64,000 nucleotides of DNA from an uncultured Spirochaetota bacterium (GTDB lineage Bacteria; Spirochaetota; Spirochaetia; SZUA-6; CAVTHK01). The notes beneath the pieces were generated by a model. That model had not been told where the DNA came from and ran no database searches. It worked only from the letters and a program-made list of their open reading frames with translations. Positions 2,496 through 44,589 of the stretch are shown piece after piece. The translations under genes and the position numbers were made by a program. The number at the start of each line of letters is the position of its first letter. Positions within the stretch are counted from its first letter, which is position 1. Location of the stretch: assembly GCA_963734495.1 (NCBI GenBank), contig CAVTHK010000001.1, positions 1 to 64,000 on the forward strand. Reading direction: 5' to 3'.

Positions 2496-2577
2496 ATACT
2501 TATTAAGGCCTCCCCCTCGGAGGTACGGTAGGATACCTACCGTCGCTCAACTAAACGATTTTGAGGAGGAGGCCACG

Positions 2578-3624
2578 ATGCACTTCTACAGCCGACAGCA
2601 CCGATTCTATTGCGGGATCGATCTGCACGCAAGGAGCATGTACGTCTGCATCATCGATTCTTCGGGGGCGGTGGTCTTCCACCGCAACCTGCCCACCGAC
2701 CGCCAGCAGCTCGTGGAGGCGATCGGGCCCTACAAGGAGGACATCGTTGTCGCGGTCGAGTGCATCTTCACCTGGTACTGGATCGCCGACGTGTGCGCCG
2801 AGCAGGCGATCCCGTTCGTCCTGGGTCACGCGCTGTACATGAAGGCGATTCACGGCGGCAAGACCAAGAACGACAAGATCGACTCACAGAAGATCGCGGG
2901 GCTGCTGCGCGGCGGCCTGCTGCCTCTCGCCTACGCTTACCCCCAGGCCATGCGCTCCACCCGCGATCTGCTTCGCCGCCGCATGTACCTCATGCACCAC
3001 CAGAGCGAGCTGCTGGCCCACATCCAGAACACCAACGCGCAGTACAACCTGGCGGCCTTTGAGAAGCGCATCAACTACCGTGGTAATCGGGCCGAGCTCG
3101 GCGAGCATTTCCAGGACCCGATGGTGAGAAAGAGCGTCGAGGCTGACAGCGAGGTCCTCGACACTCTCCACAAAGTGCTGCTGAAGCTCGAGGGCGCGGT
3201 CCTGGAGCAAGCCCGTGATCACGATCCGGCGACTCTGCAGTTGATCCGCAGCGTTCCCGGCATCGGCAAGGTGTTGTCTCTGGTGATCCTCTATGAGATC
3301 CAGGACATCGGCCGCTTCCCCACGGCGGGAAACTTCATCTCCTACGCGCGGCTGGTCAAATGCGCCCGCGAGTCTTCAGGAAAGAAGAGTGGATCGCGCA
3401 ACTCAAAGATCGGCAACGTCCACCTCAAGTGGGCCTTCTCCGAGGCGGCCGTGACGTTCTTGCGCAACAACGAGCCCGCCCAGCTCTATCACCACAAGCT
3501 CGTCGCCAAGTACGGCAAGGCCAAGGCTCTGTCGATCATCGCGCAGAAGCTCGGCCGCACCCTCTACTTCATCCTCAAGCACAAGGAGGCTTTCGACCCC
3601 CTGCGTTTTTACCAAGGAGGTTGA
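2578..3624 (+). CDS. IS110 DEDD recombinase/transposase
   Basis: GIDLH, VAVEC and KNDKID acidic motifs; VPGIG and RESSG (candidate catalytic Ser) in the C-terminal domain; GAGGAGG RBS. Confidence 0.96.
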   Translation: MHFYSRQHRFYCGIDLHARSMYVCIIDSSGAVVFHRNLPTDRQQLVEAIGPYKEDIVVAVECIFTWYWIADVCAEQAIPFVLGHALYMKAIHGGKTKNDKIDSQKIAGLLRGGLLPLAYAYPQAMRSTRDLLRRRMYLMHHQSELLAHIQNTNAQYNLAAFEKRINYRGNRAELGEHFQDPMVRKSVEADSEVLDTLHKVLLKLEGAVLEQARDHDPATLQLIRSVPGIGKVLSLVILYEIQDIGRFPTAGNFISYARLVKCARESSGKKSGSRNSKIGNVHLKWAFSEAAVTFLRNNEPAQLYHHKLVAKYGKAKALSIIAQKLGRTLYFILKHKEAFDPLRFYQGG

Positions 3625-3910
3625 TGAGAGAAAGGGACAGGGTGTGCAGCAAACCTGTCACGCCTAACTGGACTGCCATCCCTGTGCGCGCTCTATGTTC
3701 GGGCAAGTCCCACGATTTGATTGGTCGCACACCCTGGTCCCGTTTTCTCTGTGCACGACAACGGAACACCGATACGCGGTCTGCCCCGCGCCGAGCCGCA
3801 AAAGTAACTGAGGCACCGCGAGGTGACCCCCTTTTTTGATTCGGACGGCGGTCGGGCACCAATAGTCTTCTAGAGCGCTTCGGGCGACTCTCGATACGTG
3901 TTTGGTGCAG
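3625..3910 (+). ncRNA. putative bridge/seek RNA of IS110 copy 1 (same in copies 2-3, slightly diverged in copy 4)
   Basis: Hairpin 3627-3750 whose internal loop holds GCCTAAC and ACGATTTG (attC target); second hairpin 3856-3908 holds ATACGTG (IS end plus core); RNA boundaries approximate. Confidence 0.75.
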
Positions 3911-4237
3911 GCTGCGTTCCTGCACCCATCGCAGAAACCAAGTCGGACCAACTTGTCGGGTGTTCTTGCGCAGTCCCGAGGCAGCCACACGGTTGTCAGG
4001 ACTTCTCACGCCTCTTGACGAGGGAAGGCCTTATACGTGTTAGGCTGCCAACGCAGCCAGCCAACGCTCCACGGACTTGCAGCCTTGGCTTTGGCCGGCC
4101 TCCGTGATGCTGAACCTGGCCTGGTTGGGCTTGTCACCAGTCTGCACCGCCATCACGGAGATGAGTCTATCCGGCCCATCGACGGAGCGGTGGTGATCTG
4201 TGCGTTGCCCAGGACGTAGTGGCAACGGCGAGTAGCT

Positions 4238-4687: not shown

Positions 4688-6229
4688 ATACTTATTAAGG
4701 CCTCCCCCTCGGAGGTACGGTAGGATACCTACCGTCGCTCAACTAAACGATTTTGAGGAGGAGGCCACGATGCACTTCTACAGCCGACAGCACCGATTCT
4801 ATTGCGGGATCGATCTGCACGCAAGGAGCATGTACGTCTGCATCATCGATTCTTCGGGGGCGGTGGTCTTCCACCGCAACCTGCCCACCGACCGCCAGCA
4901 GCTCGTGGAGGCGATCGGGCCCTACAAGGAGGACATCGTTGTCGCGGTCGAGTGCATCTTCACCTGGTACTGGATCGCCGACGTGTGCGCCGAGCAGGCG
5001 ATCCCGTTCGTCCTGGGTCACGCGCTGTACATGAAGGCGATTCACGGCGGCAAGACCAAGAACGACAAGATCGACTCACAGAAGATCGCGGGGCTGCTGC
5101 GCGGCGGCCTGCTGCCTCTCGCCTACGCTTACCCCCAGGCCATGCGCTCCACCCGCGATCTGCTTCGCCGCCGCATGTACCTCATGCACCACCAGAGCGA
5201 GCTGCTGGCCCACATCCAGAACACCAACGCGCAGTACAACCTGGCGGCCTTTGAGAAGCGCATCAACTACCGTGGTAATCGGGCCGAGCTCGGCGAGCAT
5301 TTCCAGGACCCGATGGTGAGAAAGAGCGTCGAGGCTGACAGCGAGGTCCTCGACACTCTCCACAAAGTGCTGCTGAAGCTCGAGGGCGCGGTCCTGGAGC
5401 AAGCCCGTGATCACGATCCGGCGACTCTGCAGTTGATCCGCAGCGTTCCCGGCATCGGCAAGGTGTTGTCTCTGGTGATCCTCTATGAGATCCAGGACAT
5501 CGGCCGCTTCCCCACGGCGGGAAACTTCATCTCCTACGCGCGGCTGGTCAAATGCGCCCGCGAGTCTTCAGGAAAGAAGAGTGGATCGCGCAACTCAAAG
5601 ATCGGCAACGTCCACCTCAAGTGGGCCTTCTCCGAGGCGGCCGTGACGTTCTTGCGCAACAACGAGCCCGCCCAGCTCTATCACCACAAGCTCGTCGCCA
5701 AGTACGGCAAGGCCAAGGCTCTGTCGATCATCGCGCAGAAGCTCGGCCGCACCCTCTACTTCATCCTCAAGCACAAGGAGGCTTTCGACCCCCTGCGTTT
5801 TTACCAAGGAGGTTGATGAGAGAAAGGGACAGGGTGTGCAGCAAACCTGTCACGCCTAACTGGACTGCCATCCCTGTGCGCGCTCTATGTTCGGGCAAGT
5901 CCCACGATTTGATTGGTCGCACACCCTGGTCCCGTTTTCTCTGTGCACGACAACGGAACACCGATACGCGGTCTGCCCCGCGCCGAGCCGCAAAAGTAAC
6001 TGAGGCACCGCGAGGTGACCCCCTTTTTTGATTCGGACGGCGGTCGGGCACCAATAGTCTTCTAGAGCGCTTCGGGCGACTCTCGATACGTGTTTGGTGC
6101 AGGCTGCGTTCCTGCACCCATCGCAGAAACCAAGTCGGACCAACTTGTCGGGTGTTCTTGCGCAGTCCCGAGGCAGCCACACGGTTGTCAGGACTTCTCA
6201 CGCCTCTTGACGAGGGAAGGCCTTATACG
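4688..6229 (+). mobile_element. IS110 copy 2
   Basis: Appears identical to copy 1 (offset 2192); TG flanks. Confidence 0.95.
4770..5816 (+). CDS. IS110 transposase
   Basis: Identical 348-aa protein. Confidence 0.96.
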   Translation: MHFYSRQHRFYCGIDLHARSMYVCIIDSSGAVVFHRNLPTDRQQLVEAIGPYKEDIVVAVECIFTWYWIADVCAEQAIPFVLGHALYMKAIHGGKTKNDKIDSQKIAGLLRGGLLPLAYAYPQAMRSTRDLLRRRMYLMHHQSELLAHIQNTNAQYNLAAFEKRINYRGNRAELGEHFQDPMVRKSVEADSEVLDTLHKVLLKLEGAVLEQARDHDPATLQLIRSVPGIGKVLSLVILYEIQDIGRFPTAGNFISYARLVKCARESSGKKSGSRNSKIGNVHLKWAFSEAAVTFLRNNEPAQLYHHKLVAKYGKAKALSIIAQKLGRTLYFILKHKEAFDPLRFYQGG

Positions 6230-6303
6230 TGTTATGCGGCTCCAGGTTGAATGACAACCAAGCCGACTGCGTCATTGTGGTACGGCCTGACTACTCGGCG
6301 GTG

Positions 6304-7149: not shown

Positions 7150-8691
7150 ATACTTATTAAGGCCTCCCCCTCGGAGGTACGGTAGGATACCTACCGTCGC
7201 TCAACTAAACGATTTTGAGGAGGAGGCCACGATGCACTTCTACAGCCGACAGCACCGATTCTATTGCGGGATCGATCTGCACGCAAGGAGCATGTACGTC
7301 TGCATCATCGATTCTTCGGGGGCGGTGGTCTTCCACCGCAACCTGCCCACCGACCGCCAGCAGCTCGTGGAGGCGATCGGGCCCTACAAGGAGGACATCG
7401 TTGTCGCGGTCGAGTGCATCTTCACCTGGTACTGGATCGCCGACGTGTGCGCCGAGCAGGCGATCCCGTTCGTCCTGGGTCACGCGCTGTACATGAAGGC
7501 GATTCACGGCGGCAAGACCAAGAACGACAAGATCGACTCACAGAAGATCGCGGGGCTGCTGCGCGGCGGCCTGCTGCCTCTCGCCTACGCTTACCCCCAG
7601 GCCATGCGCTCCACCCGCGATCTGCTTCGCCGCCGCATGTACCTCATGCACCACCAGAGCGAGCTGCTGGCCCACATCCAGAACACCAACGCGCAGTACA
7701 ACCTGGCGGCCTTTGAGAAGCGCATCAACTACCGTGGTAATCGGGCCGAGCTCGGCGAGCATTTCCAGGACCCGATGGTGAGAAAGAGCGTCGAGGCTGA
7801 CAGCGAGGTCCTCGACACTCTCCACAAAGTGCTGCTGAAGCTCGAGGGCGCGGTCCTGGAGCAAGCCCGTGATCACGATCCGGCGGCTCTGCAGTTGATC
7901 CGCAGCGTTCCCGGCATCGGCAAGGTGTTGTCTCTGGTGATCCTCTATGAGATCCAGGACATCGGCCGCTTCCCCACGGCGGGAAACTTCATCTCCTACG
8001 CGCGGCTGGTCAAATGCGCCCGCGAGTCTTCAGGAAAGAAGAGTGGATCGCGCAACTCAAAGATCGGCAACGTCCACCTCAAGTGGGCCTTCTCCGAGGC
8101 GGCCGTGACGTTCTTGCGCAACAACGAGCCCGCCCAGCTCTATCACCACAAGCTCGTCGCCAAGTACGGCAAGGCCAAGGCTCTGTCGATCATCGCGCAG
8201 AAGCTCGGCCGCACCCTCTACTTCATCCTCAAGCACAAGGAGGCTTTCGACCCCCTGCGTTTTTACCAAGGAGGTTGATGAGAGAAAGGGACAGGGTGTG
8301 CAGCAAACCTGTCACGCCTAACTGGACTGCCATCCCTGTGCGCGCTCTATGTTCGGGCAAGTCCCACGATTTGATTGGTCGCACACCCTGGTCCCGTTTT
8401 CTCTGTGCACGACAACGGAACACCGATACGCGGTCTGCCCCGCGCCGAGCCGCAAAAGTAACTGAGGCACCGCGAGGTGACCCCCTTTTTTGATTCGGAC
8501 GGCGGTCGGGCACCAATAGTCTTCTAGAGCGCTTCGGGCGACTCTCGATACGTGTTTGGTGCAGGCTGCGTTCCTGCACCCATCGCAGAAACCAAGTCGG
8601 ACCAACTTGTCGGGTGTTCTTGCGCAGTCCCGAGGCAGCCACACGGTTGTCAGGACTTCTCACGCCTCTTGACGAGGGAAGGCCTTATACG
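7150..8691 (+). mobile_element. IS110 copy 3
   Basis: Near-identical to copy 1 (one T>A amino-acid change, DPAT>DPAA); TG flanks. Confidence 0.95.
7232..8278 (+). CDS. IS110 transposase
   Basis: 348 aa with DEDD motifs. Confidence 0.96.
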   Translation: MHFYSRQHRFYCGIDLHARSMYVCIIDSSGAVVFHRNLPTDRQQLVEAIGPYKEDIVVAVECIFTWYWIADVCAEQAIPFVLGHALYMKAIHGGKTKNDKIDSQKIAGLLRGGLLPLAYAYPQAMRSTRDLLRRRMYLMHHQSELLAHIQNTNAQYNLAAFEKRINYRGNRAELGEHFQDPMVRKSVEADSEVLDTLHKVLLKLEGAVLEQARDHDPAALQLIRSVPGIGKVLSLVILYEIQDIGRFPTAGNFISYARLVKCARESSGKKSGSRNSKIGNVHLKWAFSEAAVTFLRNNEPAQLYHHKLVAKYGKAKALSIIAQKLGRTLYFILKHKEAFDPLRFYQGG

Positions 8692-8768
8692 TGTTAGGTG
8701 GACCCCGTCCGCGAGCGAGTCCGACTAGCGAGCTGCCGCCAGCACGAAGCCACGCGGCTGCCTAGGGG

Positions 8769-9372
8769 TCAGCGGGTCCTGAGTGCCCGATCGTAGACGT
8801 ACTTCTGCATGGAGTAGTCGTCTGGATACTCGCGTTGTGCACGGCCTTTCGCTGGCGAGCTCGTCGACACGGCTCATGTATGACTTTGCGGAAAACTGCT
8901 GGTCATAGGCGTACTTTTGCATCGAATAGTCGTCGGGATACTCCCGTACGGCGATCCCTTTGACTTCCGGATCTCCGACCACAGCCATGTAGCGCTTTGC
9001 CGAAAGTTGTTGATCGTAGACGTATTTCTGCATGGAGTAGTCGCCGGGATGCTCTCTGGCGGCAATGGCCTTAATTTCGGCGTCGTCAACCGTTCCGATG
9101 CATCGTTTTGCCGCGGTCTGTTGGTCGTACACGTATTTCTGCATCACGAAGTCCTCGGGGTGCTCGCGAAGCGCAATTGCCCTGGTCTCTGGGTCGGCCA
9201 CCGTGCCCATGTAGCGATACGCAGACAGCTGCTGATTGTAGACGTACTGCTGCAGGTGCGCATCGTTAGGGTATTCGCGTTCCGCAAACGCCCGTAGACG
9301 CGACTCAATCGGCTGCGCGGCCGCAGCCGCGGAGAGGCAGAGAACGAGAATCCACGCCGGTGCCTTTCTCAT
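8769..9372 (-). CDS. secreted 37-aa tandem-repeat protein cassette (frameshift near 8855)
   Basis: Signal peptide MRKAPAWILVLCLSAAAAA; repeats RE(H/Y)PxDYxMQKYVYDQQ; fifth repeat continues in another frame to a TGA at 8769. Confidence 0.8.
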
Positions 9373-9389
9373 GCAAACCTCCAAGGGCC

Positions 9390-9504
9390 ACATAACATAG
9401 AGTTGAGTAGCGCCGCCGAGGAGCTACCTGATCCACAGCATAGTGAAGCCTTTCCGACCGTGCCAGTCGGCCTCTCAGGCGTCTACTCCAACGATTTGTT
9501 GGGC
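9390..9504 (-). repeat. attC: attC site 6 (empty)
   Basis: ACATAACATAGAG...CAACGATTTGTTGGGC. Confidence 0.92.
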
Positions 9505-11137: not shown

Positions 11138-11261
11138 ATCCAACGAAGAGTTGAGCAGCCGCGGATTAATTACCGAAGTGGCTACCTGCACACATTGTAA
11201 CGCCCCCTCGGCTCACCGTGCCAGCGGGATCATAGCGGTCTGCTCAAACGACTTGTTATGT
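11138..11261 (-). repeat. attC: attC site 8 (variant type, empty)
   Basis: ATCCAACGAAGAGTTGAGCAGCCGC...GCGGTCTGCTCAAACGACTTGTTATGT. Confidence 0.88.
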
Positions 11262-11938
11262 GCGCCAGTCTCACCGCCACTCGCCCAGCCAGCCGGGGGG
11301 CTCATGTCTGCGGCAGGGGTCGTCGACCCCGGGCTTGCGCCACCCTGTCAGGCGCCCCTGGCTCCGTGAGGCCCGTCGGCTACCAGGGTGTCTATGGCGA
11401 GGGCGGCGAGAGCCGCGGTGGCGAGCAGCAGCGCGCAGTTACTTTTCGCCCTGGGAGGGCCGCCTCCATCGCGTTTCGGCTCGCCGAAGCGGACAGATGC
11501 GCCTGCGATCCTGTGGCGGCTCGCACCGTAGATGGGCGGGCCTGCCCGCTGCGCTGCGTAGTGAGCCGCGGCGGGTCATGGGCTGCGAGCCGTTGCATGA
11601 GCAAGGATGCCTTTCGATGTCGGCTCGGGTGTATGGAGCGAGTCTGAAGGAGAGCAGTTCGGCGGTGACGGTTAACAGGCTGGTCCCGAGCCGCCGAGAA
11701 AGAGCAGTCCCCTCCCAGGGCGAACAGGACGCTGAAAGCGTAATCTTTCAAGCCCTGCCCCCCGGGTGCAGCGGAGGGTAGGCAGTGACGAGGCGGAACA
11801 TGTGGCGATAAGGAAGGCAGAGAACCGGGCGAGGGCCGCGGGCGAACGGTGTCCGACCCCAAGGATACTTCCCTGCCCAGTTCGCTGTGAGCCTATCGAT
11901 CTCTGATGCCGGCCAAATCGCGACAGGGTGCACATAAC
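11255..11938. other. ORF-less cassette, copy A (candidate structured ncRNA)
   Basis: Bounded by GTTATGTGC / GCACATAAC; no convincing ORF shared with copy B; many internal inverted repeats. Confidence 0.75.
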
Positions 11939-12046
11939 GAAGAGTTGAGCAGCCGCGCCGAAGTGGCTACCTGAACACATTGTAACGCCCCCTCGGCTCA
12001 CCGTGCCAGCGGGATCTTAGCGGTCTGCTCAAACGACTTGTTATGT
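11932..12046 (-). repeat. attC: attC site 9 (variant type, empty)
   Basis: Near-identical to attC 8. Confidence 0.88.
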
Positions 12047-12725
12047 GCGCCAGTCTCACCGCCACTCGCCCAGCCAGCCGGGGGGCTCATCTCTGCGGCA
12101 GGGGTCGTCGACCCCGGGCTTGCACCACCCTGTCAGGCGCCCCTGGCTCCGTGAGGCCCATCGGCTGTCAGGGTGTCTATGGCGAGGGCGGCGAGGGCCG
12201 CGGTGGCGAGCAGCAGCGCGCAGTTACTTTTCGTCCTGGGAGGGGCCGCCTCCATCGCGTTTCGGCTCGCCGAAGCGGACAGATGCGCCTGCGATCCTGT
12301 GGCGGCTCGCACCGTAGATGGGCGGGCCTGCCCGCTGCGCTGCGTAGTGAGCCGGGGCGCGTCATGGGCTGCGAGCCGTTGCATGAGCAAGGATGCCTTT
12401 CGATGTCGGCTCGGGTGTATGGAGCGAGTCTGAAGGAGAGCAGTTCGGCGGCGACGGTTAACAGGCTGGTCCCGAGCCGCCGAGAGAGAGCAGTCCCCTC
12501 CCAGGGCGAACGGGACGCTGAAAGCGCAATCTTTCACGCCCTGCCCCCCGGGTGCAGCGGAGGGTAGGCAGTGACGAGGCGGAACATGTGGCGATAAGGA
12601 AGGCAGAGAACCGGGCGAGGGCCGCGGGCGAACGGCGTCCGACCCCAAGGATACTTCCCTGCCCAGTTCGCTGTGAGCCCGTCAGGTCTCTGATGCCGGC
12701 CAGTTCGCGACAGGGTGCACATAAC
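12040..12725. other. ORF-less cassette, copy B
   Basis: Tandem, slightly diverged duplicate of 11255-11938. Confidence 0.75.
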
Positions 12726-12827: not shown

Positions 12828-14368
12828 ATACTTATTAAGGCCTCCCCCTCGGAGGTACGGTAGGATACCTACCGTCGCTCAACTAAACGATTTTGAGGAG
12901 GAGGCCACGATGCACTTCTACAGCCGACAGCACCGATTCTATTGCGGGATCGATCTGCACGCAAGGAGCATGTACGTCTGCATCATCGATTCTTCGGGGG
13001 CGGTGGTCTTCCACCGCAACCTGCCCACCGACCGCCAGCAGCTCGTGGAGGCGATCGGGCCCTACAAGGAGGACATCGTTGTCGCGGTCGAGTGCATCTT
13101 CACCTGGTACTGGATCGCCGACGTGTGCGCCGAGCAGGCGATCCCGTTCGTCCTGGGTCACGCGCTGTACATGAAGGCGATTCACGGCGGCAAGACCAAG
13201 AACGACAAGATCGACTCACAGAAGATCGCGGGGCTGCTGCGCGGCGGCCTGCTGCCTCTCGCCTACGCTTACCCCCAGGCCATGCGCTCAACGCGCGATC
13301 TGCTTCGCCGCCGCATGTACCTCATGCACCACCAGAGCGAGCTGCTGGCCCACATCCAGAACACCAACGCGCAGTACAACCTGGCGGCCTTTCAGAAGCG
13401 CATCAACTACCGTGGTAATCGGGCCGAGCTCGGCGAGCATTTCCAGGACCCGATGGCGAGAAAGAGCGTCGAGGCTGACAGCGAGGTCCTCGACACTCTC
13501 CACAAAGTGCTGCTGAAGCTCGAGGGCGCGGTCCTGGAGCAAGCCTGTGATCACGATCCGGCGGCACTGCAGTTGATCCGCAGCGTTCCTGGCATCGGCA
13601 AGGTGTTGTCTCTGGTGATCCTCTACGAGATCCAGGACATCGGCCGCTTCCCCACGGCGGGAAACTTCATCTCCTACGCGCGGCTGGTCAAATGCGCCCG
13701 CGAGTCTTCAGGAAAAAAAAGCGGATCGCGCAACTCAAAGATCGGCAACGTCCACCTCAAGTGGGCGTTCTCGGAGGCGGCCGTGACGTTCTTGCGCAAC
13801 AACGAGAGCGCCCAGCTCTATCACCACAAGCTCGTCGCCAAGTACGGCAAGGCCAAGGCTCTGTCGATCATCGCGCAGAAGCTCGGCCGCACCCTCTACT
13901 TCATCCTCAAGCACAAGGAGCCTTTCGACCCCGTGCGTTTCTACCAAGGAGGTTGATGAGAGAAAGGGACAGGGTGTGCAGCAAACCTGTCACGCCTAAC
14001 TGGACTGCCATCCCTCTGCGTTCTCTGTATTCGGGCAAGTCCCACGATTTGATTGGTCGCACACCCTGGTCCCGTTTTCTCTGTGCACGACAACGGAACA
14101 CCGATACGCGGTCTGCCCCGCGCCGATCCGCCAAAAGTAACTGAGGCTCCGCAAGGTGACCCCCTTTCTTGATTCGGACGGCAGTCGGGAACCAAATGTC
14201 TTCTAGAGCGCCTCGGGCGACTCTCGATACGTGTTTGGTGCAGGCTGTGTTCCTGCATCCATCGCTGAAACCAAGTCGGACCAGTTTATCGGAGTTCTTC
14301 CCAGGCCAGCGGCAACCACACGGTTGTCAGGACCCGTTACGCCTCTTGACGCCGGGAGGCCTTATACG
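12828..14368 (+). mobile_element. IS110 copy 4 (diverged variant)
   Basis: Same termini and TG flanks; scattered substitutions from about 13290 onward. Confidence 0.95.
12910..13956 (+). CDS. IS110 transposase (variant)
   Basis: 348 aa with a few substitutions relative to copy 1. Confidence 0.95.
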   Translation: MHFYSRQHRFYCGIDLHARSMYVCIIDSSGAVVFHRNLPTDRQQLVEAIGPYKEDIVVAVECIFTWYWIADVCAEQAIPFVLGHALYMKAIHGGKTKNDKIDSQKIAGLLRGGLLPLAYAYPQAMRSTRDLLRRRMYLMHHQSELLAHIQNTNAQYNLAAFQKRINYRGNRAELGEHFQDPMARKSVEADSEVLDTLHKVLLKLEGAVLEQACDHDPAALQLIRSVPGIGKVLSLVILYEIQDIGRFPTAGNFISYARLVKCARESSGKKSGSRNSKIGNVHLKWAFSEAAVTFLRNNESAQLYHHKLVAKYGKAKALSIIAQKLGRTLYFILKHKEPFDPVRFYQGG

Positions 14369-14424
14369 TGTTAGGTTGTTCCCGTTCGCCCTGGGCGGTT
14401 CCGGTGCGAACCGAGCTGGTCTCA

Positions 14425-16761: not shown

Positions 16762-18042
16762 ATGCCGCCGCAAGGACTTCCCTTTGAGCTCTACCTTCTG
16801 CGGGTCGCACGGATGCCCGTCAGGATCATCCCATGGATGCGCCACTGGGTGAGGCAATACCCCAGCGTGGCGGATACCCAACCCGCAGGGCGCGCGGCGG
16901 CGCTGGAGCGATTGGCATCTGAGCTGTCCCCCAAGCATGAGCGTGCAGCAGTAGAGCAGGCGTGCCAGGCGGTCAGACACTACTGGTTCTGGCTGGATCG
17001 CTGGCGCCCCGCCGGTGACCCGCAGCACCAGGCGGCGCCAGAGGACGATCGGGAACGGCTGATCGACGAGGCCTGTCGGCTCATGCGCCTGCAGCACAAA
17101 TCGTACCGTACGGAAAGGACTTATCTCGCCTGGATACGGCGCTTCTTCTCGTTTCCGCCGACAGCCAGGAGCCCAGCGATCGACGGGAGCTGCCTTACCC
17201 GCTACCTGACCTTCCTCGCCGTGGAGCGCAGGGTGTCTTCGTCCACACAGCAGCAGGCCTTCAATGCCCTGCTCTTTCTCTTCCGGTCCGTCCTGAATCA
17301 GTCCGTTGATGGGATTGCCTGCGCAGTCAGGGCACGTAGAACGTCGCGTCTCCCTGTCGTGCTCTCGCCGGGTGAAGTAGCGGGGTTGATCGGTCACCTC
17401 TCGGGGCAGTCCCGGCTCATGGCCGAGGTGATCTACGCCGCAGGTCTCCGTCTCCACGAGTGTCTATCGCTCCGCGTGCAGGACCTGGACTTCGACGCTG
17501 AAACTCTCACGGTGCGTCGAGGCAAGGGCCAGAAGGACCGGAGGGCCCTCTTCCCGCCGACGTTGCACAAGGCGATGCAGGGTCACCTGCGCCACGTGCG
17601 CGCGATCTACGAGCAGGACCGCCGCAGCGGCCTTCCCGGGGTACCGCTGCCGGACGCACTGGAGCGCAAGTACCCGAACGCGACCACCGAGTGGCGCTGG
17701 TTCTGGGTTTTTCCATCCGGTCGGCACTCGATCGATCCCCGCACCGGCAAGGTCTACCGATACCACGTCTACCCGACGACTCTTCAAAAGAAGGTGCAGC
17801 AGGCAGTCCGCGAGCTCGGTTTTGCGAAGCAGGCCACCGTGCACTCGCTGAGACACAGCTTTGCGACCCATCTGATCGAAGCTGGCTACGACATCCGTAC
17901 GATTCAGGAATTGCTGGGGCACTCGCACGTGGAGACAACCATGATCTATACTCATGTCGCTCAGCGCAACAAGGCGGGAGTGGTGAGCCCCTTGGAGCGG
18001 CTCAACGCGCGCTACCCTGCGCCCGGTCGTCCGGACGGCTGA
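16762..18042 (+). CDS. intI: integron integrase
   Basis: Tyrosine recombinase motifs (GLRLHE, HSLRHSFATHL, LLGHSHVETTMIYTH) plus the IntI-specific LPDALERKYPNATTEWRWFWVFPS insert; divergent from the cassettes; start uncertain. Confidence 0.96.
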   Translation: MPPQGLPFELYLLRVARMPVRIIPWMRHWVRQYPSVADTQPAGRAAALERLASELSPKHERAAVEQACQAVRHYWFWLDRWRPAGDPQHQAAPEDDRERLIDEACRLMRLQHKSYRTERTYLAWIRRFFSFPPTARSPAIDGSCLTRYLTFLAVERRVSSSTQQQAFNALLFLFRSVLNQSVDGIACAVRARRTSRLPVVLSPGEVAGLIGHLSGQSRLMAEVIYAAGLRLHECLSLRVQDLDFDAETLTVRRGKGQKDRRALFPPTLHKAMQGHLRHVRAIYEQDRRSGLPGVPLPDALERKYPNATTEWRWFWVFPSGRHSIDPRTGKVYRYHVYPTTLQKKVQQAVRELGFAKQATVHSLRHSFATHLIEAGYDIRTIQELLGHSHVETTMIYTHVAQRNKAGVVSPLERLNARYPAPGRPDG

Positions 18043-39903: not shown

Positions 39904-40035
39904 GTCGGTGGCCTTCCGGTTCGTGCAGGACACGGGCAGGGGAGGCAGGACGCAAGCGCCGGAGGCCGCTTCCGTACGAGAAAGAGCGCCTGCCTGTGCG
40001 ACGCGCCGGCCAATGGAGCCTCCTACCACTGCGCG

Positions 40036-40090
40036 AGGTAGGAGTCATCAGCCTTGCGGGCGGTTGGACGAGGGGGACTCCATCCCCTGA
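40036..40090 (-). promoter_or_regulatory. fluoride riboswitch (crcB motif)
   Basis: Minus strand GGGGATGGAGTCCCCC-N6-AACCGCCCGCAAGGCTGATGACTCCTAC fits the crcB consensus, including the GGAGTC/GACTCC pseudoknot. Confidence 0.88.
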
Positions 40091-40174
40091 GGGCACAACC
40101 TTACCGCGGCGATTCCGCGATCGTCAAGGCAGAGAGCGCGGCGCCCTCTTGCGCCGGGGGAGCGGAGCGACACA

Positions 40175-44251: not shown

Positions 44252-44589
44252 AACGGCTCCTCCGTCTCGCAGGAATCACCGCTCGACGCAGGCACCGTTT
44301 TAGGAAGCCGTATCGAGTCGGCAGCCGTGCAACCATTTCGGGTCCTGGACCCGAGGCAGGCCACGTGCTTTGCGCCCCCTCCTTTCGGAAGGTTCGCCTT
44401 TTTCGACGTTGACTTCTAAAGCAAGCGACGTGCCAAACCGATGTTGTCCCTAACCTGCTCTTGGATCGTGAGTTACGGGATCACGGTCGGGAACTGTGCG
44501 ACGGAGGGGTTACAGATACGTTACCGGGGCGCGATCCCGGCGTTACGGCAGCGTGACCCCAGGGGTGGCCCCGGGTCGGGCCGCAGCCG

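Follow-up and report, generated by a model that had tools for sequence, protein, structure and literature searches.

The segment at positions 3625-3750 is very probably the target-binding module of a guide RNA (seekRNA or bridge RNA), by which an IS1111-type insertion sequence (IS) homes to the attC sites of the integron that carries it. The window, meaning the whole 64,000-nt stretch of DNA that was analysed, comes from an uncultured Spirochaetota bacterium. An earlier note on this DNA had proposed an RNA-guided recombinase aimed at this attC family, and all predictions of that proposal that can be read at the level of sequence hold, covering domains, ends, guide order and covariation. The observation is confirmed, but the mechanism is already published and the finding is not new in kind. 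For IS1111-type elements, RNA-guided attC targeting goes back to a proposal of 2009 and a demonstration of 2024, leaving little mechanistic gain. What looks new is a tail with three similar loop modules (target, middle target-like and donor) and a transposase lineage apparently distant from the clinical group.

The insertion sequence and its integron

An integron cassette array spans window positions 1 to about 16600 and contains four copies of the insertion sequence. The features of the element and its surroundings are as follows.

2483-2495, + strand: left flank of copy 1, the attC end CTCCAACGATTTG, on the R''/L'' side of the attC in cassette orientation
2496-4039, + strand: IS copy 1, IS1111-type, 1544 bp, delimited by end-to-end alignment of the four window copies, whose flanks diverge exactly there
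2502-2514, + strand: left subterminal inverted repeat ATTAAGGCCTCCC, pairing with 4022-4034
2578-3624, + strand: transposase gene, 348 aa, with DEDD (RuvC-like) and Transposase_20 domains
4015-4020, + strand: TTGACG, about 20 nt from the right end; TTGAC(A/G/T) is kept in the 16 relatives displayed
4022-4034, + strand: right subterminal inverted repeat GGGAAGGCCTTAT, read from the sequence
4040-4045, + strand: right flank TTAGGC of copy 1, which with the preceding G gives a GTTRRRY-type attC core
4688-6231, + strand: IS copy 2, listed as 100% identical to copy 1
7150-8693, + strand: IS copy 3, listed as 100% identical to copy 1
12828-14370, + strand: IS copy 4, 96% identical to copy 1
17065-18003, + strand: integron integrase gene (TIGR02249, 385.6 bits against a cut-off of 265)

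The integrase gene lies on the plus strand, so the cassettes are read from the minus strand, and CAACGATTTG followed by TTRRRY is thus the R''/L'' (5') end of each attC in cassette orientation. Nine attC sites in the window, each about 110 nt long, carry the exact terminal word CAACGATTTG, and all nine of these ends terminate in the 8 nt ACGATTTG. At empty sites the word is followed by TTATGT, TTATGG, TTGGGC, TTGGAT or again TTATGT, and the junction has the form G/TTRRRY. A pattern search of the genome found 29 attC ends of this family, seven of which run into the left end of the IS, with a full copy present at five of the seven. The other two adjoin only the first bases of the left end (on contig C9 near 24158, minus strand, and on contig C13 near 212008), and the right end of the IS is absent there within 1.6 kb. 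A solo 64-nt relic resembling the right end, with 84% identity, lies at C16:278645-278708. The genome also encodes a second integron integrase at C11:2484-3419 (TIGR02249, 425 bits), with attC sites of the same family at C11:92 and C11:1066 and more on C13 and C18. Within the window array, a cassette of about 786 bp is duplicated in tandem (11173-11756 and 11958-12542, 97-98% identical) and bears an attC variant ending in CAAACGACTTG. Five direct repeats spaced by about 111 nt at 8789-9276, inside the minus-strand frame 8725-9393, suggest a cassette encoding a repeat protein.

The element has the domain content and layout of the IS1111 type. The transposase matches PF01548 (2.1e-15) and PF02371 (3.7e-19), as well as the NCBIfam model NF033542 for the IS110 family RNA-guided transposase (192 bits, the cut-off being 140). 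It thus combines the N-terminal DEDD and C-terminal Transposase_20 domains within the 330-350 aa typical of the type. Judged by eye, the C-terminal motif GL-P----S(T)G is only partly recognizable in the protein at ARLVKCARESSGKK, where SG is present and G and P are off the consensus places. The inverted repeats lie 6 and 5 nt inside the ends, in line with the 7-17 bp repeats and short terminal extensions of IS1111-type elements. Non-coding DNA is also distributed as in that type, with 82 nt upstream and 415 nt downstream of the transposase gene. The earlier note spoke of an IS110 guide RNA; within the ISfinder IS110 family the element is of the IS1111 type and not IS110 proper.

An own-genome search recovered five full copies, four in the window and one on contig C9. 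The C9 copy is listed with 100% identity and sits between CTCCAACGATTTG and TTATGC. The boundary of copy 1 is ambiguous by TG (at least G), which is common to the end of the left flank and the right end of the IS. All five full copies are inserted between CAACGATTTG and TTRRRY in one orientation, with the transposase gene running antisense to the cassettes and the insertion point near the attC 5' end. Both the fixed position near the attC 5' end and the single antisense orientation are those described for the IS1111-attC group (PMC3001079).

The window element might owe its match to the past alone, with an RNA that once guided it and copies that the host array now retains as inactive relics. 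The two left-end-only stumps and the solo right-end relic elsewhere in the genome would fit such a history, which we nevertheless judge very unlikely. Three window copies and the C9 copy are listed as 100% identical and have open 348-codon genes, which suggests recent movement. Copy 4 is the diverged one, with 55 positions differing from copy 1 over the element, and its transposase frame is still open and its guides are intact.

The transposase lineage appears remote from the clinical IS1111-attC group. A translated search of 72,556 plasmids returned 472 records, all below 60% identity. The best matches were in Ca. Manganitrophus (58%) and in marine Vibrio, Pseudoalteromonas and Alteromonas (about 50%); the remaining matches reached at most 34%, and some of these are annotated as ISGsu4 family. 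Pseudomonas, Klebsiella, Escherichia and other enterobacterial genera were absent from the ten commonest genera in this plasmid search. Klebsiella, Escherichia and Pseudomonas are the carriers of clinical IS1111 elements. The survey suggests that the lineage is distant from, or outside, the clinical IS1111-attC clade. Tetu and Holmes reportedly recognized in 2008 a monophyletic IS1111-attC clade of ISPst6, ISPa21 and ISKpn4. A match on a P. aeruginosa plasmid (34% identity) lies outside any integron.

The probable target loop and its matches to attC

The target loop, or module 1, begins directly after the transposase stop codon, its stem starting 2 nt past the stop. It consists of the following parts.

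3626-3647, + strand: outer stem, 5' strand, from the fold; 14 of 14 outer-stem pairs are changed on both sides in a 58-sequence alignment
3662-3668, + strand: T guide GCCTAAC, the complement of top-strand G+TTAGGC right of the insertion point
3670-3677, + strand: inner stem, 5' strand GGACTGCC, seen in copy 1 when the fold is constrained and in copy 4 in its best fold
3678-3702, + strand: apical loop, short, 25 nt
3703-3711, + strand: inner stem, 3' strand GGCAAGTCC, pairing with 3670-3677
3712-3721, + strand: B guide ACGATTTG (3712-3719), the same as the left flank; the next two bases, AT, are those with which the IS left end begins
3727-3749, + strand: outer stem, 3' strand, from the fold and covariation

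The 126 nt at 3625-3750 fold with -53.7 kcal/mol (z = -4.13), a value that none of 200 shuffled sequences equalled. The pairing of GGGACAGGGTGTGC (3634-3647) with GCACACCCTGGTCCC (3727-3741), which the earlier note had read from the letters, is part of a longer stem that extends over 3626-3647 and 3727-3749. Both guide segments lie where they had been placed. The inner stem thought to close an internal loop forms unaided in the best fold of copy 4 but not in the unconstrained fold of copy 1, in which part of both guide segments is paired with neighbouring bases. With the guide segments held open, copy 1 forms the inner stem GGACU/AGUCC. A window search of Rfam gave no family for the tail RNA at the gathering threshold. 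The only families it recovered were a fluoride riboswitch (40032-40096, minus strand, 53.1 bits) and a c-di-GMP-I riboswitch (44317-44408, minus strand, 61.6 bits), both above the Rfam gathering score.

As the earlier note had read, copy 4 retains both guides unchanged at 13994-14000 and 14044-14051 and has mutated in the apical loop between them. All five differences from copy 1 within 3625-3750 fall in this loop (3684, 3689, 3690, 3695 and 3697). The 101 nt of stems and guides in this segment show no difference. The distribution is a purifying pattern.

The two guides match the two sides of the insertion point. ACGATTTG is identical to 8 nt of the attC left flank at every copy. GCCTAAC had been described as the reverse complement of GTTAGGC across the insertion point, and this is exact for copy 1 only. 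The right flanks of copies 2, 3 and 4 and of the C9 copy (GTTATGC, GTTAGGT, GTTAGGT and GTTATGC) each match the T guide at 6 of 7 positions. The two matches overlap at the core G, and the complement of the top strand lies 5' of the complement of the bottom strand; such paired matches are the mark of seekRNAs and bridge RNAs. Of 20000 random 126-mers, 2 matched both the left flank over at least 8 nt and the right-flank complement over at least 7 nt, which excludes chance.

Site occupancy in the genome is biased towards sites that match the T guide well. The five occupied attC sites score 6, 6, 6, 6 and 7 of 7, while the 22 empty sites score 4/7 (four sites), 5/7 (twelve) or 6/7 (six), a difference with a one-sided Mann-Whitney p of 0.002 (5 vs 22 sites). 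Restricting the empty sites to the 14 with a perfect B match gives p = 0.007. Copy 2 and the C9 copy have the same right flank and perhaps represent one insertion event rather than independent ones. Speaking against the guide model, four of the five full copies occupy sites with one T-guide mismatch.

Covariation among relatives and the rest of the tail

Relatives of the transposase are widespread, and their tails share one plan. A scan of one genome per species gave 445 candidate stretches, 433 of which encode a relative, and the best 79 of these 433 loci (55-76% protein identity, many phyla by record titles) formed the comparative set. Nearly all 79 loci show, 3' of the stop codon, a stem, [RYYYAAC]TGG, an apical part, [N5-6 TTG]ATTGG and again a stem. 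Their left flanks resemble attC ends, for example gctgcagcgcTTG followed by ATACTCATT, and their right ends read ATA[N]G[TG]G followed by TTRRRY. The attC-like left flanks and TTRRRY right flanks indicate that the whole transposase family homes to attC ends. Among the window element and the 79 loci, 62 yielded both guide anchors by pattern; in the others the contig is short, the gene is broken, or the locus belongs to a Treponema subgroup whose 5' strand is variant. In most relatives the apical part of module 1 is about 85 nt long and contains a small covarying hairpin (columns 101-104 and 126-129), whereas the window element and one relative (L059:4053-4140) have a short apical part devoid of this hairpin.

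The structure is conserved by compensatory change. An RNAalifold consensus of 58 aligned module-1 sequences contains the outer stem, and in most relatives the apical hairpin. The inner stem was not recovered in this 58-sequence consensus, probably owing to alignment slippage around the variable apical part. Over 18 pairs in the 58 sequences, 84.6% of cells are paired, compared to 64.9% after shuffling and 45.5-51.8% with partners slid. All 18 pairs are changed on both sides, compared to 15.7 after shuffling (9 of 500 shuffles reach 18) and 12-17 with partners slid. The earlier proposal had looked to homologs for stem covariation, and it is present there, with a score of 0.618 against 0.261 for shuffled alignments (0/500 reach) and 0.15-0.19 for slid partners.

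Both loop strands track each relative's own flanks, as the guide reading had predicted, and in neither case did any of 20000 permutations reach the observed agreement, though these counts overstate independence given the shared phylogeny of the relatives. For the B guide against the left flank at positions -8 to -4, 53 loci gave 128 matches of 265 (permuted 78.0 +/- 7.6). For the T guide against G plus the right flank, 49 loci gave 279 of 343 (permuted 258.8 +/- 3.9). The B-guide set comprises the 55 loci with anchors and a left flank, minus two identical pairs; L041 and L046 were dropped for a mis-called anchor. The T-guide set excludes L037 and L050, whose right end had been mis-called, and L069, which has an odd flank. 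The window element has the best B-guide match to its left flank (9/10), and many relatives reach only 3-6/10. Guides that change with the target on stems that are kept are what characterizes seekRNAs and bridge RNAs, and this is the pattern across the relatives.

These comparisons bear on two further explanations of the segment. The hairpin could mainly be a transcription terminator or a message-stabilizing stem of the transposase gene, with incidental attC matches in its loop. A long G+C-rich stem 2 nt past the stop codon, whose 3' strand runs into GTTTTCTCT, is what such a role would call for, but the T-rich run itself belongs to the stem. Incidental matches are also at odds with the rarity of the joint loop match in random sequences and with loop strands that track the flanks of relatives, and termination would require neither that the internal loop be conserved nor that two similarly designed modules follow. 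As the main function, termination therefore has a slim chance, even though terminator and guide roles are compatible with each other. Scarcely credible is a captured or mimicked piece of attC DNA acting at the DNA level, for example as an integron integrase site: GCCTAAC does have the attC core form (RYYYAAC) and ACGATTTG equals the neighbouring attC bases, but the order and relative strand of the pieces are wrong for an attC copy (the one complementary to the right flank is 5' of the one identical to the left flank), the GTTRRRY partner is absent, 43 nt of unrelated stem-loop separate the two, the flanking stem shows compensatory changes typical of RNA, and the same layout is experimentally RNA in ISKpn4 and ISPst6, as reported in PMC11187229.

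A guide RNA thus remains the preferred reading of module 1, and an alignment of 43 tails revealed two further modules of the same design downstream of it.

3781-3858, + strand: module 2, target-like loop, with AAAAGTAAC at 3800-3808, a hairpin at 3809-3828 and CCCTTTTTTG at 3829-3838 followed by ATTCGG
3859-3905, + strand: module 3, donor-type loop, with CCAATAGTCTTC at 3859-3870, a hairpin at 3871-3892 and GATACGTG plus TT at 3893-3902, then TGG

Module 3 contains segments that match the element's own ends and is, on this sequence criterion, the predicted donor loop. Its 3' strand repeats ATACGTG, the right end, and then TT, with which the right flank starts. At the variable base of the internal ATA[N]GTG, where all four bases occur, 42 of 49 loci agree with their right end, compared to a permuted mean of 17.4 +/- 3.1, and none of 20000 permutations reached 42. 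The 5' strand CCAATAGTCTTC is related to the complement of G plus the left end. Covariation with the left end is weak for this strand: 38 loci gave 260 of 456 matches (permuted 249.6 +/- 4.0; 135 of 20000 permutations reach this). L062 has 10/12 matches and the window element 6/12. Donor-binding bases in multi-loop structures of IS1111 elements have been noted by Durrant et al. (PMC11208160).

Module 2 lies between the target loop and the donor loop and occupies the same place in L012-L086. Its constant marks ..AAC/TGG..TTG/A.T.GG occur in most of the 43 tails, with exact TAAC and TTTG in most rows. Its arms were compared with both flanks and both ends of the elements, and agreement stayed at the permuted level throughout, apart from a weak signal of the B2 arm with the left flank (84 of 266 against 71.6 permuted; 457 of 20000 permutations reach this). 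Pairing between the two arms gave no clear signal. A generic scan of the 250-nt flanks for module 2 matches lacked power, missing even the true B guide. An exact left-end complement near ..TAAC was considered as a left-end guide and rejected, as this motif is part of module 2 and varies independently of the left end. Module 2 might be a second programmable loop, of a kind undescribed in bridge RNAs and seekRNAs, that provides a second target specificity or reads a junction at excision only, but we regard this reading of the sequence as rather unlikely. Plasmid copies in Vibrio campbellii and Alteromonas macleodii have the same three tail modules.

Proposed mechanism and relation to known systems

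By analogy with published systems, the guide RNA would be transcribed with or after the transposase message and then held by the transposase. At an empty attC end, its internal loop could read both DNA strands, with the 3' loop strand ACGAUUUG pairing with the bottom strand left of the crossover and the 5' loop strand GCCUAAC with top-strand G+TTAGGC to its right. Such two-strand pairing would account for insertion between ...CGATTTG and TTRRRY, in a single orientation antisense to the cassettes. Module 3 (3859-3905) may carry the matching pair for the element's own ends and thus act as the donor loop. Transcription, processing, transposase binding and strand-exchange chemistry of this RNA are presumed here from the related elements. 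Five runs of RNA libraries hold 0.04-0.07 of the sampled words of the element. Contigs from four RNA runs are short, derive from relatives that are 88-99% alike, and cover parts of the gene as well as 3470-3794, 3740-3959 and 3833-4030. They come without ends or strand from libraries that can hold DNA, and are no more than compatible with transcription through the tail. TTGACG is a candidate -35 box of a promoter that may be completed when the IS ends join as a circle; a junction promoter formed by joined ends has been described for IS1111 elements (PMC11187229).

The closest precedents are the IS1111 elements studied by Siddiquee et al. (2024), who purified transposase-bound RNAs from the tails of ISEc11, ISPa11, ISKpn4 and ISPst6 and reprogrammed ISEc11 (PMC11187229). 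As described there, these seekRNAs present a top-strand match and then a bottom-strand match, an order also predicted for ISPa25, and the targets of ISKpn4, ISPst6 and ISPa25 are one end of attC sites. According to PMC11208160, Post and Hall (2009) had linked conservation of the right end to target choice. The window element shares with ISKpn4, ISPst6 and the diverged ISPa25 a DEDD transposase of about 340-350 aa, subterminal repeats and a long 3' non-coding region, and its predicted RNA likewise begins just past the stop codon. As in the IS1111 seekRNAs of PMC11187229, the top-strand match lies 5' of the bottom-strand match and the two overlap at the insertion point. In contrast, the window transposase seems distant from those of the three elements, as judged indirectly from plasmid matches that all stay below 60% identity. 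A literature search found no account of this transposase lineage or of a three-module tail. Natural reprogramming in ISEc11 and ISXne4, where according to PMC11187229 the stem is kept and loop segments change with the target, resembles what was found at 53 loci here. The relatives of the window element differ in that they keep one target class (attC ends), and only the variable bases change.

The bridge RNA of IS621 is a more distant parallel. As described in 2024 by Durrant et al. (PMC11208160) and Hiraizumi et al. (PMC11208158), its internal-loop strands also read opposite DNA strands around a short shared core, and its target loop is likewise separate from its donor loop. The AT after the B guide and the TT after the right-end match, which fit the other DNA partner, recall the handshake guides of IS621. 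In IS621, however, the handshake bases stand beside the right-side guides, whereas they follow left-type guides in the window element. The window RNA further differs from that of IS621, as published, in lying 3' rather than 5' of the gene, in the reversed order of its guide strands and in having three loop modules rather than two, and the window element has long subterminal repeats. Group IIC-attC introns are also RNA-guided and enter attC near the 5' end, antisense to cassettes (PMC3001079). They do so as retrohoming ribozymes with a reverse transcriptase, whereas the window element would combine a DEDD recombinase with a guide RNA.

The value of this element lies in its natural history, as a clean multi-copy example in a genome where filled sites stand next to empty ones. 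The family counts at least 433 relatives from many phyla, all with an attC-type guide, and RNA-guided insertion sequences may therefore be general parasites of chromosomal integrons outside the clinic. Their natural pairs of guides and flanks can be compared to work out how IS1111-type guide RNAs base-pair. Among these pairs are 1-nt register shifts and mismatches tolerated within the variable RRRY portion of the core, and the third loop adds to the set. At five left junctions (L018, L028, L048, L063 and L084) the B guide matches well only with one extra DNA base, which lies between the distal match and TTG. The extra base could be bulged, or these elements could have inserted into a non-cognate attC variant.
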